The translations under genes and the position numbers were made by a program. From the IMG/VR virus record IMGVR_UViG_2667527818_000004: a stretch of DNA of 4,703 bases; one strand, given 5' to 3'. Shown here in pieces: positions 71 to 4,703 of this stretch (its first letter is position 1; each line of letters opens with the position of its first letter). The DNA comes from a virus (taxonomy: Duplodnaviria; Heunggongvirae; Uroviricota; Caudoviricetes). The notes beneath the pieces were generated by a model. The model had not been told where the DNA came from. It saw nothing but the letters and a program-made list of their open reading frames with translations, and searched no databases.

Positions 71-1921
71 GTGCTCCTCTTCTTGGTACTGATGGCACTC
101 CAGTTAATGGCCAAAGCAGCTGATAATGCAGACTGGAAGGCCCGCTGGGGTAGCGTCCATCACACAGACCGTACGTTGTTAGCACATTATCGCGCGTCGT
201 TGAAAAGCGCCATTCAGCGCAAGGCTAATATCACTCAAGCCATCTCCCGCTATGAGAAATTATTGAACCGTACTCAGAAGGCCGCGACGGATATCAAACG
301 CCTGCGCCCGCTGGTGGAGGATGCAATAAATAAAGGCATTCTGGATGTTGATCCTGATCTGGTTAACCATGCGAATGAGTTCCTTGTTATCGGCGATCGC
401 TCATGGCGTGTAGGCCAATACTACGATTGTGCCGGTGATATCGTTCGCATTAAGTCGCTGGACTTCGACAGCCAGCGCGCAGACGTGGAGATCATCTTTA
501 CCTTCAAAGGTACCAAATCGGGTAACTGGGATGTGAAGACGCTGGATAAACAGGTTGATGTAATTCCCGATGAAGATGCTGTTATGCAGAAAATCAGTGG
601 TGGCGTCTCCATCGCCGGGATTAACGACATCATTTCCTGTGACGATTTCTACCGTTTCCAGCAGCGCGGCATGATCAAAATCACTGACTCATACGGCGTT
701 CAGACTACAGAGTCAGGCTATAGCATCGATTTTGTTGGTACCTATACGGACCCACTGAAGCATGCGGTTTACCCGGATCGCCGTGACGGCGCGCTGAAGT
801 CGTCAATTGCAAAATGGGTGCTTGGTATGATGTCGGAAGGGAATAACCGCCAGATCCGTTCGGCAGAAACATTCCTGGTTGAACTGTTTGGCTCCAATTA
901 TGGCGATGTAATCGCGTCATACGGAGATACGCTATCCCCTGAAGCAATTCAGGAGAAAATAGCGGATGCGATCGCCAGAATGCCGGAAAAAACAAGCCAG
1001 GGGGCTACTCGTAACGGGGATTCTGAACTTGAAGTCACCAATGCCATTTTCGGTACCAATGAGTTCCGGGCGTCAGATTATGAGATCACCACAGCACAGT
1101 TTGGCACCATTGGCATTTACAGCAATAAAGACGAGATCAAACAGTCAATGGACGCTGCAAGCGCGCGCATTGCAGCAGAACGCAAAGCCAATCTGAATCA
1201 TGCAGTTTCCGCGCTGACTCAATCGTGGGTAACAGCAATCAGGGAGGCCGCCACCACAGGAAAAATCACACCGGCAATTGCGGATGTCGTAAACGACGGC
1301 TCTAAATTTATGGATGCCTATAAAATGGATGCGGTGCAGTTGCCATCAGCCTATGGTCAACTCAGCTATCGCATGACCTACAACCTGGTATCAATGTTTT
1401 CCGACCTTGCCATCCTTGGGCTGGTGGATCTTAACGAGGTTACGCCGGAATTGCTCAGCATGCGCAAGAATCATGTGGAGATATTGCAGAGAATTAACAC
1501 GGTTCTTGCCGGGCGCACCGATGAAGAGAAACAGGCCGACGCTGATCGGATAAACCTGGCCCTTGGCAACATCACGGAGGAAGAGATTGCCGCCAGAAAC
1601 GAGAAACAAGAAGAGTTATCATCAATACAGGGTGATGCCACCAGCATAGCTCAGTCTCTTGGTCTGAATTATCGCGTATCCACCGCCGACCTGAAGATGA
1701 TGTTCGCACCAAAATTCGCCGCTGGCGAGGTATTTGGGCTTCAGGAAGCCTCAGGCATGAAAGGCGTTCTTTTCCGTGCGAAAGACGCAATCAAGGCGAA
1801 ATTCGGCGCTCGCTGGCTGCCAGCGAAGGCGAAGAACAGCGATTTCCCGGGTAACTGGTGGATTATCGAGACAAAACACAACGTGGCGGACGTTCTGGCC
1901 GTCATCCAACAATACGCATAA
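71..1921 (+). CDS. Hypothetical protein, 616 aa, function unknown; first gene of a probable three-gene plus-strand operon
   Basis: Long uninterrupted ORF ending at TAA 1919-1921, about 50-52% GC. The frame is open back to the window edge (no stop in positions 2-70), so the true start is ambiguous: GTG 71 overlaps an SD-like GGGAGG (66-71), and TTG 83 or ATG 89 are alternatives, or the gene may begin upstream of the window. No Walker A (P-loop) motif found by eye. Hydrophobic N-terminal segment LLFLVLMALQLMA. Confidence 0.7.
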   Translation: MLLFLVLMALQLMAKAADNADWKARWGSVHHTDRTLLAHYRASLKSAIQRKANITQAISRYEKLLNRTQKAATDIKRLRPLVEDAINKGILDVDPDLVNHANEFLVIGDRSWRVGQYYDCAGDIVRIKSLDFDSQRADVEIIFTFKGTKSGNWDVKTLDKQVDVIPDEDAVMQKISGGVSIAGINDIISCDDFYRFQQRGMIKITDSYGVQTTESGYSIDFVGTYTDPLKHAVYPDRRDGALKSSIAKWVLGMMSEGNNRQIRSAETFLVELFGSNYGDVIASYGDTLSPEAIQEKIADAIARMPEKTSQGATRNGDSELEVTNAIFGTNEFRASDYEITTAQFGTIGIYSNKDEIKQSMDAASARIAAERKANLNHAVSALTQSWVTAIREAATTGKITPAIADVVNDGSKFMDAYKMDAVQLPSAYGQLSYRMTYNLVSMFSDLAILGLVDLNEVTPELLSMRKNHVEILQRINTVLAGRTDEEKQADADRINLALGNITEEEIAARNEKQEELSSIQGDATSIAQSLGLNYRVSTADLKMMFAPKFAAGEVFGLQEASGMKGVLFRAKDAIKAKFGARWLPAKAKNSDFPGNWWIIETKHNVADVLAVIQQYA

Positions 1922-1954: not shown

Positions 1955-2395
1955 ATGGCCACACTATCTGATACAATAAAACCGAATAAAACATATCTTG
2001 AGGCGGTACTCCGTACAGCGTTGTTAGGAAAGACAGAAGACGAATACGTTGATTTCTTCCTGTCAGGGCTACGCGGGCGATTACTGAAAAATCCCCGCCT
2101 GTACCGCAGCTATGGTCCATACTGGTCGGAAATTAAAAAATTATTACTGGAGCGCGGTTATGGTAATTTCGGTCGTCTCGTTGACCGTGACGTTCGCAAA
2201 ATTTACCGTTATGACCGCCCGGCGCTAACACTCATAGCCGCGACGCTCTACAGCCAGGAGCGTTTTGATAATGGTCAGATATACTCAGCCTGGCATTTAC
2301 TGCCAGTGCCTGAAGAGGTTGACGACCAGGACTATGAGTTTGAGTCTTACGATTTGGAAGTTGAAGCCTTGGCACAGGCTGGAGAGAAAACTTGA
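1955..2395 (+). CDS. Hypothetical protein, 146 aa, with acidic C-terminal tail; function unknown
   Basis: ATG at 1955 lies 33 nt after the upstream stop. The ORF has the same GC content as, and sits in tandem with, the 616-aa gene. The C-terminus is rich in D/E (EEVDDQDYEFESYDLEVE). Stop TGA 2393-2395 overlaps the start of the next ORF. No canonical SD directly upstream; an AGGAG at 1923-1927 is separated from the ATG by a hairpin. Confidence 0.6.
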   Translation: MATLSDTIKPNKTYLEAVLRTALLGKTEDEYVDFFLSGLRGRLLKNPRLYRSYGPYWSEIKKLLLERGYGNFGRLVDRDVRKIYRYDRPALTLIAATLYSQERFDNGQIYSAWHLLPVPEEVDDQDYEFESYDLEVEALAQAGEKT

Positions 2396-2640
2396 AAAAG
2401 CGATACTACACAGTAAAGCATGGGACGCTACGAGCATTACAAGAGTTTGCTGACAAGCATAACGTTGAGGTGCGCAGGGAAGGGGGAAGTAAAGCTCTGC
2501 GCATGTACCGTCCGGACGGAAAATGGCGGACGGTCGTCGATTTCAAAACTAACAGCGTTCCCCAGGGCGTCCGCGACCGGGCATTCGAGGAATGGGAGCA
2601 GATCATCATAGATAACGCATTGCTCCTGAATGCTGATTAA
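2392..2640 (+). CDS. Hypothetical small basic protein, 82 aa (TTG start); weak motif-level resemblance to HicA/YcfA-like small RNA-binding proteins, unverified
   Basis: TTG 2392-2394 overlaps the TGA stop of the upstream ORF (TTGA), suggesting translational coupling. SD-like GGAGAG at 2381-2386 sits 5 nt upstream of the TTG. Stop TAA 2638-2640 is followed 5 nt later by a hairpin. The alternative first in-frame ATG (about 2500) would give only 46 aa. The HicA-like resemblance (GGSKAL...RPDGKWRTVV...VPQGV) is recalled from memory and lacks the usual His residues. Confidence 0.5.
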   Translation: MKKRYYTVKHGTLRALQEFADKHNVEVRREGGSKALRMYRPDGKWRTVVDFKTNSVPQGVRDRAFEEWEQIIIDNALLLNAD

Positions 2641-2644
2641 GAAC

Positions 2645-2673
2645 TCTCCGGCCTAGGGAGATTAGGCCGGAGA
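2645..2673. terminator. Probable bidirectional transcription terminator hairpin between convergent operons
   Basis: Perfect 11-bp inverted repeat tctccggccta (2645-2655) / taggccggaga (2663-2673) with a 7-nt loop gggagat. It lies 5 nt after the plus-strand stop (2640) and 8 nt before the minus-strand gene end (2682). There is no clean U-tract on the plus strand; the minus-strand transcript would continue as GUUCUUAAUC (partial U-tract). Confidence 0.5.
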
Positions 2674-2681
2674 TAAATATA

Positions 2682-3986
2682 CTATATAAACTTAGATATA
2701 ATATCGTGAATCTGTTGTAGCGGGATTTCTTCCATCTTACTCTTAATAAGAGAGCGGTTAGATGCTGTCAGTGAAGGCCATTTTGTTTTCCAGGCTAGAT
2801 ATGCTCGCCATGAGTAGCCTGTTTCGTAAGGTTTATTCATATAAGTCATTGAGTGTTCAACCGCATGTATGTATTTTTTCTCAAAGTTGGTTCCTTTTAC
2901 TTCAAATAAACTACCGAAATAAATAAGCCATTTTGCCAGGTGTTCATACTGCTCCCATGCGCTAGACTCTTTAGTAAGATCTATTTTTTTATCTATTATA
3001 TCACAAAAAACATTTAATACCTTTTCATCATTCCAGCTATATCCAGATGATGAAATGGAGGAAATGATATGATAAAAAGAATCCTCTAACTTCAAGAACT
3101 CTATTTTATACTCTCTTCCGTTTTTTATTACCGATTTGATTGAGTGCCTCAATTTGTCTTTTATTTTTTTTGCTTCTGGAATTTTCTTGTTAAGTTTTCT
3201 AAAGAAATCAGACACCTCTGTTTTATCTATAACCCTAATCCCAAAGCAGGAAAAATAGTAATCTTTAATAGGTTGCAATAGTTTCCCTCGGGAAATAAGG
3301 AAAATATTGGAGGACATTACGTTGTCCCGTGAAAATACCTTATATTCATTTATAATCGCCTTGAGGTTCGCGTCACTTAGAGAATAGCCAAGAATAACAA
3401 TAGTGTTTTCATGTAGAACTGTGCTTAGTTTATTTGAAAAGTAAGAATTACCATTTATAAATCTGAAATAATCCTCGCTAGTAACAACCATATCTGATGG
3501 GGAGTCTATAGAGCCGTGAACATGGTAGACTTTAACCTCACAATTATATTTTGGAATTGGCAGGCCGGGGGTGATTGTACACGTTCGATTCTCTCCAGCC
3601 AGTTTTTCTGCTAACTTGTCATAATTTGTCGTAATTACTTTAAATGTGTTTTCTTTGAAAAAGTCTTGAATATATTCAATTGATGGATCAAGTTCGATTG
3701 AGGCTATGATTTTCTCAATCTCCTGGTAAATATTTTTCCCCGAAAGTATAAATTTTAGTGCAATAACCTGAGCAGCCTCTTCAAGGCTAAGGTCTTTTGC
3801 TTTTCCATCAGGAAATAATTCCTCTTTGAGTGAGTCACCATCCTTCAATAAACCGCACAGTTGCTCCAATAAAGATTGCCAACTTGGGGCTTTATCATCA
3901 GAAACAGCCTTTGAAAATCCAGTGCCTGTAAGAAAGCACAGCCTATGTGTAGCTGCTGCATAGGCAATTTCTATATACTCGCTCAT
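2682..3986 (-). CDS. SIR2-like (sirtuin/DHS-like NAD-binding) domain protein, 434 aa; ThsA-type SIR2 N-terminal domain plus an uncharacterised C-terminal domain; candidate NADase anti-phage effector
   Basis: ATG at 3986-3984 (minus) is preceded by GGAG (plus 3993-3996) with a 6-nt spacer. Stop TAG at 2684-2682. Motifs read from the translation: FLTGTGFS (residues 18-25, glycine-rich NAD-binding loop), VITTNYDKL (residues 117-125, N121) and VYHVHGSID (residues 153-161, H155/H157), followed by IVILGYSLSDANL. These match the order and spacing of SIR2_2-type defence sirtuins as I recall them for ThsA. The gene is about 30% GC against about 50% in the flanks. Confidence 0.8.
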   Translation of the reverse strand: MSEYIEIAYAAATHRLCFLTGTGFSKAVSDDKAPSWQSLLEQLCGLLKDGDSLKEELFPDGKAKDLSLEEAAQVIALKFILSGKNIYQEIEKIIASIELDPSIEYIQDFFKENTFKVITTNYDKLAEKLAGENRTCTITPGLPIPKYNCEVKVYHVHGSIDSPSDMVVTSEDYFRFINGNSYFSNKLSTVLHENTIVILGYSLSDANLKAIINEYKVFSRDNVMSSNIFLISRGKLLQPIKDYYFSCFGIRVIDKTEVSDFFRKLNKKIPEAKKIKDKLRHSIKSVIKNGREYKIEFLKLEDSFYHIISSISSSGYSWNDEKVLNVFCDIIDKKIDLTKESSAWEQYEHLAKWLIYFGSLFEVKGTNFEKKYIHAVEHSMTYMNKPYETGYSWRAYLAWKTKWPSLTASNRSLIKSKMEEIPLQQIHDIISKFI

Positions 3987-4042
3987 TACTTACTCCATTT
4001 ACTTATAGTTCTACGGAGAAGTATACCCTAATGCATTGACGT

Positions 4043-4684
4043 TTATAGATAATTTCCTTTTCCTGTTAATACTCCCTTAGGCACCTGTTTTTGTGCCAGC
4101 GTTTGGGTTCCGCGAATTATGTTAATCAGAGGGCTTAGTAACGATGGTTCCTGGCGTGCCTCAACTTCTCCAGCCATTGCCCTGATGTAGTCTGCGCTGG
4201 CAACGTTGTTGTATTCCGTCGCAAAGCAACATAGTAACGTCAGAACATGCTCTGTCGTTATTTCGCTCCAGTTGATGTTGAAAAATTCATCGCCTTTTTT
4301 GTCGTGTTCGGAATCGAAGATGCTTTGGTGGAGGATGTATTTGCCGGATTCTTTGCGCGGTAACTTGATCGCTTTCTGGCGTTCCAATTCCTTGTAAATC
4401 TGCATTGCTTCAATCAGTACCGGCCTGCCGTTCATAAAGGGATCTCGCAACCTTACACGCTGGCCAACTCGACCAGTAATAAAGCTGTTTTCCTCTTCCA
4501 CCAGCACGATAAAACCCTTTTCCTCTTTTTCTCGCAATTCGCGCAGCAGCTGGAGTTCCATGTCGCGGCGGCGTTCAGGGTAGCTGGTCCGCTCAGCCAT
4601 TATCAGCTCATTGTTGATCCATGCAGCAGTCATTGACGCCGGTTTGCCGACGCTCATTGAAACAACGCATATTTTCTTATCCAT
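4043..4684 (-). CDS. Hypothetical protein, about 214-217 aa, function unknown; encoded immediately upstream of and co-oriented with the SIR2-like gene
   Basis: ORF on the minus strand with stop TAA (plus 4043-4045). Likely ATG start at 4684-4682 giving MDKKICVV...; the ORF track's TTG at 4696 is an alternative, and the frame stays open to the window edge at 4703, so a 5' extension cannot be excluded. About 49% GC. Predicted beta-alpha-beta N-terminus (KICVVSMSV ... GFIVLVEEE). No P-loop, and no TIR or HEPN motif that I can support. Confidence 0.65.
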   Translation of the reverse strand: MDKKICVVSMSVGKPASMTAAWINNELIMAERTSYPERRRDMELQLLRELREKEEKGFIVLVEEENSFITGRVGQRVRLRDPFMNGRPVLIEAMQIYKELERQKAIKLPRKESGKYILHQSIFDSEHDKKGDEFFNINWSEITTEHVLTLLCCFATEYNNVASADYIRAMAGEVEARQEPSLLSPLINIIRGTQTLAQKQVPKGVLTGKGNYL

Positions 4685-4703
4685 AGCGCCCCACAAAAAA
4701 GAA

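Follow-up and report, generated by a model that had tools for sequence, protein, structure and literature searches.

SIR2 NADases are recurring immune effectors of Bacteria and, via FAM118, they are also found in animal immunity. How it gets switched on is a question for every SIR2 variant, including the product of the gene described here, which joins a SIR2 domain to a C-terminal domain (CTD) that had been singled out in the initial annotation as an uncharacterized candidate sensor. The gene lies in a window of 4,703 nucleotides, which is the whole stretch of DNA analyzed.

A P1-like phage-plasmid with a SIR2 gene as mat-lxc cargo

The window is from a P1-like Escherichia coli phage-plasmid: it is 100% identical to the E. 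coli plasmid pF719-2 and ~98-99% identical to many P1-like plasmids of ~92-118 kb. The gene order is darB (cut here by an IS3 element), ulx, lxc, SIR2 (on the minus strand), mat, ref and cre. The locus has the following features:

1955-2395, plus strand: ulx, P1 backbone gene flanking the slot
2392-2640, plus strand: lxc, P1 backbone gene flanking the slot
2641-4042, no strand assigned: low-GC cassette carried as cargo between mat and lxc of the P1-like backbone, as shown by the GC drop and the homology breakpoints
2645-2673, minus strand: hairpin with an 11-bp stem where the lxc and SIR2 genes converge, resembling a terminator of the SIR2 transcript (terminator scan)
2682-3986, minus strand: SIR2-CTD gene, complete 434-aa open reading frame from the list of open reading frames (stop codon 2682-2684, ATG 3984-3986)
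4043-4696, minus strand: mat (maturation control), P1 backbone gene, as annotated in P1-like records

The 434-aa reading frame is the longest on the minus strand of the window, and a GGAG ribosome-binding site can be read in the sequence ~8 nt 5' of its ATG. In pF719-2 the protein has the RefSeq entry WP_000006034.1, named 'SIR2 family NAD-dependent protein deacylase'; in PHROGs it is matched over its full length by phrog_7567, labeled 'unknown function'. The mat gene is directly upstream on the same strand, with a gap of 56 nt, and the terminator scan detected no terminator between the two genes.

The GC content is 0.32-0.35 in the SIR2 gene versus ~0.50 in the flanks. Homology among P1-like elements breaks at the lxc stop codon and restarts at the mat stop codon, and these breakpoints delimit a 1.4-kb cassette whose sole gene is the SIR2-CTD gene. 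The same slot is empty (39 bp) in RCS47, contains the res/mod genes of the EcoP1I type III restriction-modification system in P1, and in SJ46 encodes a 373-aa RelA/SpoT protein, on the same strand as the SIR2 gene here. This last protein is taken to be CapRelSJ46, since phage source and length agree (PMC9712102). The res-mod region has been included among eight variable, low-GC regions of P1-like elements (PMC9603915). In Ro157c2YLVW the slot holds an AraC-type regulator and an EAL protein, and it is not exclusively defensive.

The SIR2 domain

Along the protein, the following parts can be distinguished:

3222-3986, minus strand: SIR2 (SIRim-type) domain, residues 1-255, with predicted NADase activity
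3117-3221, minus strand: connecting helix, long and Lys/Glu-rich, residues 256-290 (AlphaFold2 helix 258-288)
2727-3116, minus strand: CTD core, residues 291-420, modeled as all-alpha (possibly a HEAT/ARM-like solenoid)
2925-2987, minus strand: conserved motif 1 of the alignments A1 and A3, with Lys334 (2985-2987), T338-x-E340 and 'AWxQYxxLAxWL' at residues 343-354 (2925-2960)
2778-2852, minus strand: conserved motif 2 of the alignments, with Ser379 (2850-2852) and 'G-x-S-W-x-A-Y-x-x-W-x-x-x-W' at residues 390-403 (2778-2819)
2685-2726, minus strand: variable C-terminal tail, residues 421-434, of low model confidence (pLDDT <50 at 423-434)

The Pfam SIR2_2 family is found at residues 117-245 (1.4e-23). 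The NAD loop, GTGFS, corresponds to residues 21-25, and the two motifs of the active site are TTNYD, with Asn121 (3624-3626), and HVHGS, with His157 (3516-3518). Asn121 and His157 are invariant among homologs down to 25% identity, and His157 is aligned with the catalytic His of DSR2. Seven beta-strands are present in the AlphaFold2 model (16-20, 115-119, 135-138, 151-155, 195-199, 228-231 and 250-253); the Cys4 zinc site is absent and no CxxC pairs occur in the protein sequence. SIRim proteins are defined by at least seven beta-strands and by the lack of the zinc-binding Cys tetrad (10.1101/2024.09.18.613514), and the modeled protein, with its Rossmann fold, the Asn and His of the NAD site, its strand count and no Cys tetrad, fits this class.

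The closest structures of the SIR2 domain are those of KomC and ThsA. The nearest relatives, by both sequence and structure, are all defense NADases, and according to their descriptions the closest structures include helical or filamentous assemblies, namely the KomC/KomBC helices, the Avs5 filaments and the FAM118B filament.

A predicted all-alpha C-terminal domain

The initial annotation had set the C-terminal region at residues 251-434. Its coordinates are exact, residue 251 beginning at 3236 and residue 434 ending at 2685, and the extent is right apart from the start, since residues 250-253 still belong to the SIR2 Rossmann fold, as its last beta-strand, and the module begins at ~256. The two peptides quoted there are indeed present, at residues 342-363 and 391-406, and the described composition is borne out: Lys and Glu account for 22.3% of residues 251-434 versus 15.2% of residues 1-250, and Phe, Trp and Tyr for 13.6% versus 11.2%. 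Six of the seven Trp of the protein are in this region, where Gly is 2.7%. The reported lack of a glycine-rich nucleotide-binding motif extends to the whole protein, in which no GxGxxG or Walker-A pattern occurs.

AlphaFold2 modeling of the full protein, with an alignment of 35 sequences, gave a mean pLDDT of 83.2 and a pTM of 0.79, and that of residues 255-434 alone a pLDDT of 81.4 and a pTM of 0.75. As anticipated, the CTD is largely helical, with helices throughout and zero strands: a long Lys/Glu-rich helix (258-288) is followed by about seven further helices (295-298, 303-314, 321-337, 344-360, 369-381, 393-405 and 408-418) and by a low-confidence tail. The model points to a folded, conserved and separate all-alpha module, possibly HEAT/ARM-like, and the full-length pTM suggests that the packing between the SIR2 domain and the CTD is defined.

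SLOG and Macro domains are alpha/beta folds, and both are therefore excluded by an all-alpha CTD. The proposed dissimilarity from the SLOG domain of ThsA agrees with this, as no SLOG, Macro or P-loop features could be found in the CTD. When a SLOG or Macro match to the CTD was looked for there was none, the best fold matches being alpha-solenoids; no ATPase-fold or APAZ-containing structure is among the fold matches listed. The domain was rightly called uncharacterized, since it has no significant match in Pfam, PADLOC, NCBIfam or PDB sequences and its PHROGs entry has no assigned function. Two Pfam matches are attributed to chance: OTU (13.8-15.9 bits versus a cutoff of 23.3) and Ig_Pom152 (13.5 bits versus a cutoff of 27), whose Ig-like nature also conflicts with the all-alpha fold. 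Sequence and profile searches of the PDB with the CTD gave only matches with E>0.5, e.g. the GU4 nucleic-binding protein, and these were discarded.

Coupling of the two domains and conservation

The full protein has 660 significant homologs, nearly all of them 431-437 aa long, with 55-60% identity across 95-100% of the length. Given this conservation and the purifying selection described below, the CTD is a genuine domain and no accidental extension of the reading frame. A search with the CTD alone, over 1.84 billion cluster representatives, retrieved 78 proteins; the full-length members among them carry the CTD at ~250-440 of 406-480-aa proteins and the remainder are fragments. Ten of the most distant CTD matches all have an N-terminal SIR2_2 domain, and a profile search built on 34 diverse CTDs added only further fragments of the same family. 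Shuffling of the CTD among other proteins was considered and rejected, as both searches returned only SIR2-fused proteins or fragments; for the same reason the CTD is an obligate partner of the SIRim-type SIR2 domain and not a mobile module.

Mean pairwise identity was calculated by region in a close set of homologs (A1) and in a broad set (A3):

Rossmann core: A1 0.78, A3 0.40
CTD core (291-420): A1 0.60, A3 0.28
SIR2 helical insert (29-112): A1 0.52, A3 0.25
Connecting helix (256-290): A1 0.45, A3 0.19; rated the least conserved part
Tail (421-434): A1 0.46, A3 0.13

The CTD is not hypervariable, and the SIR2 helical insert varies at least as much. In the broad set, motif 1 contains K334 (37/37), Y347 and W353 (36/37 each), A351 (35/37) and L354 (34/37), and motif 2 contains S379 (36/37), W399 (35/37), G390 (34/37), S392 and W393 (33/37 each); in A1, the closer set, W403, N410 and R411 show no variation. 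The Lys, aromatic and Ser/Asn set of the CTD is kept across homologs of 25-55% identity. The lack of hypervariability, this residue set and the absence of shuffling are explained by a conserved ligand, by an interdomain latch or by an assembly interface no less readily than by a protein-recognition surface shaped by an arms race.

Five P1 alleles, 92-100% identical and mosaic, were used for dN/dS estimates. The CTD is under purifying selection: in most of the pairs the values lie at 0.07-0.23, for the SIR2 domain and the CTD alike. A surface engaged in an arms race with phage proteins would be expected to give a different pattern. One close pair differs in the CTD by 14 nonsynonymous versus 4 synonymous changes (omega 0.85; 4:6 in the SIR2 domain), mostly at charged surface-type positions (D320N, K322N, D329N, E340K, R394L and K417E). 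Positive selection in the CTD was rejected, since it would rest on one pair, with counts too small and mosaic alleles; the variation in this single pair is a weak hint of surface variation.

Genomic neighborhoods and distribution

In a one-genome-per-species collection, 181 genome stretches among those matching the search patterns encode relatives of the protein. No conserved neighbor was found within the 3-kb flanks of 67 non-redundant loci, each neighbor family occurring in at most 3 loci, and in the few cases of shared neighbors the genomes are mostly closely related. This lack of a conserved neighbor implies that sensor and effector reside in one polypeptide, or that the cue comes from the phage. 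The mat gene was discarded as a partner, as it is present without SIR2 in P1, RCS47 and SJ46; it is also unrelated to the 207-aa gene found upstream of the Pseudoalteromonas SIR2-CTD homolog. The 870-aa gene upstream in Acinetobacter loci was discarded as well, being an aconitase in ordinary local synteny.

The family is patchily distributed, with members in Proteobacteria, Actinobacteria and Bacteroidota. The Idiomarina homolog adjoins an integrase and Hachiman genes (HamA and a DEAD helicase), the Delftia one adjoins an Mrr_cat nuclease and the Vibrio cholerae one is near a GmrSD_N gene; the Klebsiella oxytoca homolog is inside a satellite-like element (integrase/Phage_ASH/primase/P2-type-capsid), and one E. 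coli homolog is at the integrase end of a prophage. In E. coli the gene is present in 70 of 5426 complete genomes, with 71 of 72 copies on plasmids; the plasmid carriers listed are of ~92-141 kb, the size of P1-like elements. No full-length homolog was found in INPHARED phage records, the P1-like carriers being deposited as plasmids.

The gene has a defense context, made up of EcoP1I and the presumed CapRelSJ46 in the same slot, defense or mobile neighbors elsewhere, low GC content and patchy spread. The initial view of a SIR2 variant is upheld by this context and by the stand-alone nature of the protein.

Comparison with known systems

DSR2 and DSR1 share with this protein a single-gene organization in which an N-terminal SIRim-type SIR2 NADase precedes an all-alpha region, and the SIR2 domains of DSR2 and of the present protein are detectably homologous (E 1e-8). 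The similarity is however confined to this part: the NCBIfam models score 30.5 bits (Dsr2) and 21.2 bits (Dsr1) versus a cutoff of 1400, with only residues 111-209 matched, and PADLOC Dsr2 covers only residues 117-235, whereas the DSR models have ~1200 positions (SIR2 plus a long helical MID/CTD). The analogy with DSR drawn at first is nevertheless reasonable, since the best fold matches of the CTD are alpha-solenoids, the class reported for the C-terminal domain of DSR2 (PMC11850899). The tail tube protein is reported to activate the DSR2 NADase.

ThsA is described as gated by cyclic ADPR isomers (PMC11204291). It differs from the present protein in its alpha/beta SLOG domain, the CTD being all-alpha here, and no thsB/TIR gene could be found near the SIR2-CTD gene, either in the window or in the 67 other loci. 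Kongming signals through a base-modified nucleotide (10.1101/2024.12.20.629578); its KomC is a SIR2-only protein of 264-278 aa, solved with KomB, while here an extra CTD of 180 residues is present and partner genes are missing. More generally, SIR2-HerA (Nezha), Kongming, SPARSA and Avs5 rely on components that are missing here, i.e. the HerA ATPase, KomA/KomB, a short pAgo with APAZ and a STAND NTPase, respectively. Genes for these partners are absent from the window, none is conserved across the 67 loci, and the protein has no P-loop motif.

CapRelSJ46 is a validated fused toxin-antitoxin defense protein of phage SJ46. It resembles the SIR2-CTD protein in its plan, in which a toxic enzyme at the N-terminus is joined, within a single polypeptide, to an antitoxin-like region at the C-terminus (PMC9712102). 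If the SJ46 protein is CapRelSJ46, as we take it to be, the two also share the mat-lxc slot and the strand on sister P1-like elements. However, its effector is a toxSAS pyrophosphokinase and not a SIR2 domain, and no sequence or fold kinship exists, so that the analogy is limited to architecture and location.

The best match in PADLOC is PDC-S25 (9e-24), but it pairs just residues 100-253, the SIR2 core, with positions 127-283 of a 517-position profile, and the CTD alone matches nothing in PADLOC. Since only the SIR2 core is matched, the protein does not belong to this candidate family in its modeled form. The single-gene SIR2 of Rousset et al. 2022 (pFR88, P4 hotspot) was also considered; its N-terminal sequence differs, it appears to be another family, and it is not among the seven systems that Rousset et al. 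describe as protective. No published test of the SIR2-CTD family was found in the searchable literature.

Thus, the SIR2-CTD protein falls outside each named system considered, i.e. ThsA, DSR1/DSR2, SIR2-HerA, Kongming, SPARSA, Avs5 and PDC-S25. It is rated as a putative sirtuin NADase to which a non-catalytic, probably regulatory domain is fused, resembling a compact DSR-like sirtuin.

Proposed mechanism and alternative explanations

The CTD is probably the regulatory or sensing part of the enzyme. The evidence tilts, by a little, towards an all-alpha CTD (residues ~256-434) acting as the obligate partner of a SIRim NADase in a single-gene anti-phage protein, the sole cargo of the mat-lxc slot. 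The mechanism that we propose combines a predicted NADase activity, a putative role in phage defense, a presumed autoinhibition or sensing by the CTD and a candidate type of trigger. In the lysogen the CTD would pack on the SIR2 domain and hold the NADase off. Upon infection, binding of a cue by the CTD would release this latch and/or induce self-assembly. By analogy with DSR2 and with CapRelSJ46, whose C-terminal region reportedly senses the capsid, the cue would most likely be a phage protein. The SIR2 site (Asn121/His157) would then hydrolyze NAD+, aborting the infection and protecting the population of P1 lysogens. We infer, in line with the initial annotation, that the CTD may be the sensor that defines trigger specificity. 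An observation against this reading is that KomC and ThsA, to which the SIR2 domain is structurally nearest, are switched on by small nucleotides and not by proteins.

In a different, unlikely explanation, the CTD would be an assembly or scaffold domain for the oligomerization (constitutive or induced; tetramer or filament) needed by the SIR2 site, and the cue would be read elsewhere, for instance in the helical insert at residues 29-112. This insert, the more variable region, could be the real sensor; indeed, its identity is lower than that of the CTD (0.52/0.25 vs 0.60/0.28). The helices of KomC/KomBC and the filaments of Avs5 and FAM118B, being among the closest SIR2 structures, are consistent with an assembly role, but the KomC and FAM118B filaments are built by SIR2 alone, from chains of 264-299 aa, and a 180-residue extra domain would be unnecessary. 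Similarly, the near-invariant aromatic stripe formed by W344/Y347/A351/L354 and W393/Y396/W399/W403 resembles a packing interface or core, yet the near-invariant polar residues K334, Q346, S379, S392 and N410 point to a specific site and not to a hydrophobic interface only.

It is quite unlikely that the CTD is instead an all-alpha receptor that recognizes a conserved small molecule, or a conserved feature of nucleic acids, arising on infection, making the protein a ligand-gated NADase like ThsA or KomC. Candidate cues would be a signal of nucleotide type, or a metabolite that the phage makes or alters; since no host signal synthase is encoded alongside the gene, such a ligand would have its origin in the phage or in a changed host metabolism. 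In favor of this explanation, KomC and ThsA, to which the SIR2 domain is structurally closest, both belong to nucleotide-signaling systems, and the invariant Lys together with Trp, Tyr, Gln, Ser, Asn and Arg may be read as a mix typical of base-stacking and phosphate-binding pockets. A conserved ligand would also account for the CTD not being hypervariable.

It is very improbable that the protein has no immune role and acts as a protein deacylase or an ADP-ribosyltransferase, encoded by an ordinary accessory gene, with the CTD bringing in a substrate from the cell or from P1. The RefSeq deacylase name, the possibility of non-defense cargo in the P1 slot and the position immediately after mat, in the same orientation and with no terminator detected between, speak for it, but the Cys tetrad that binds zinc in true sirtuins is missing from the protein, which shows SIRim clade features instead, its nearest sequence and structure relatives are all defense NADases, and its neighborhoods are rich in defense genes and mobile elements, with a patchy taxonomic distribution.

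Implications for sirtuin immunity and phage-plasmids

The architecture of the protein is unsurprising to specialists, while its CTD is a domain without a characterized relative. Should the CTD be a latch or a sensor, as in the preferred reading, it would represent a new sensor domain family, in a defense gene not modeled by PADLOC v2. Should it bind a ligand through a Lys/Trp/Tyr/Ser/Asn pocket, the 434-aa protein would on its own constitute a ligand-gated NADase immune system, and its sensor fold would be new to sirtuin immunity. Compact (434 aa), stand-alone, widespread and located in the slot where CapRelSJ46 is placed, the protein may serve as a tractable minimal model of a sensor-plus-effector sirtuin, and it bears on how phage-plasmids protect their hosts.

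The SIR2 slot and its variation among P1-like elements

Comparison of P1-like elements indicates that the interval between mat and lxc (window 2641-4042) is a clean cargo slot, whose sharp edges coincide with two stop codons, those of lxc and mat. The same slot is occupied differently in the related elements.

Contents of the mat-lxc slot in other P1-like elements
P1: res/mod
SJ46: a RelA/SpoT protein (373 aa), presumably CapRelSJ46
RCS47: empty, 39 bp
Ro157c2YLVW: AraC-HTH and EAL proteins

The SIR2 alleles carried by P1-like plasmids (window 2682-3986 compared with loci L088-L091) fall into groups at 92-100% identity and are mosaic. In particular, the L089 allele shares its sequence with that of the window as far as about residue 149 and, from there on, with the divergent allele of L088; at the sequence level, this switch implies intragenic recombination within the SIR2 gene. 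As regards the C-terminal domain (CTD) of the 434-aa protein, residues 279-434 correspond to a separate PHROGs family of 156 positions (phrog_35181), and several database entries of 150-270 aa, retrieved by CTD sequence and profile searches, span this domain alone; most of the CTD-only entries appear to be truncated gene predictions from short contigs.

Transcription signals

One candidate signal is located where the convergent genes lxc and SIR2 meet.
2645-2673, terminator-like on the minus strand: hairpin with a stem of 11 bp (7 GC)
At the equivalent position SJ46 also has a hairpin, but a different one. On the other side, the mat stop and the SIR2 start are separated by only 56 nt (window 3987-4042), both genes lying on the same strand, and simple scans of this gap detected neither a promoter-like nor a terminator-like site. 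The mat gene of P1 is under the control of the C1 operator Omat and of a late promoter; SIR2 expression in the lysogen may depend on mat read-through, or else on an undetected promoter.

The left edge of the window

71-1921: darB, annotated in pF719-2, a plasmid that the window matches at 100% identity, as a 5'-truncated 'helicase' pseudogene
P1 backbone is absent from about the first 105 bases; other P1-like plasmids align from base 105 onward only, and in pF719-2 an IS3-family transposase lies directly upstream of the window's first bases. The anti-restriction gene darB is thus inactivated, specifically in the window's element.

Neighbourhoods of SIR2 homologues

Two homologue loci look like defence islands.
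Idiomarina locus L100, 5175-9311: SIR2 homologue 100 nt downstream of a Hachiman-like pair, HamA and a DEAD-helicase, with an integrase also adjoining
Delftia locus L098, 8001-10773: SIR2 homologue convergent with an Mrr_cat nuclease gene
No fixed association with any such defence gene was seen among the 67 homologue loci examined. As for the P1-like plasmids, the slot contents across all of them could be a source of more defence candidates.
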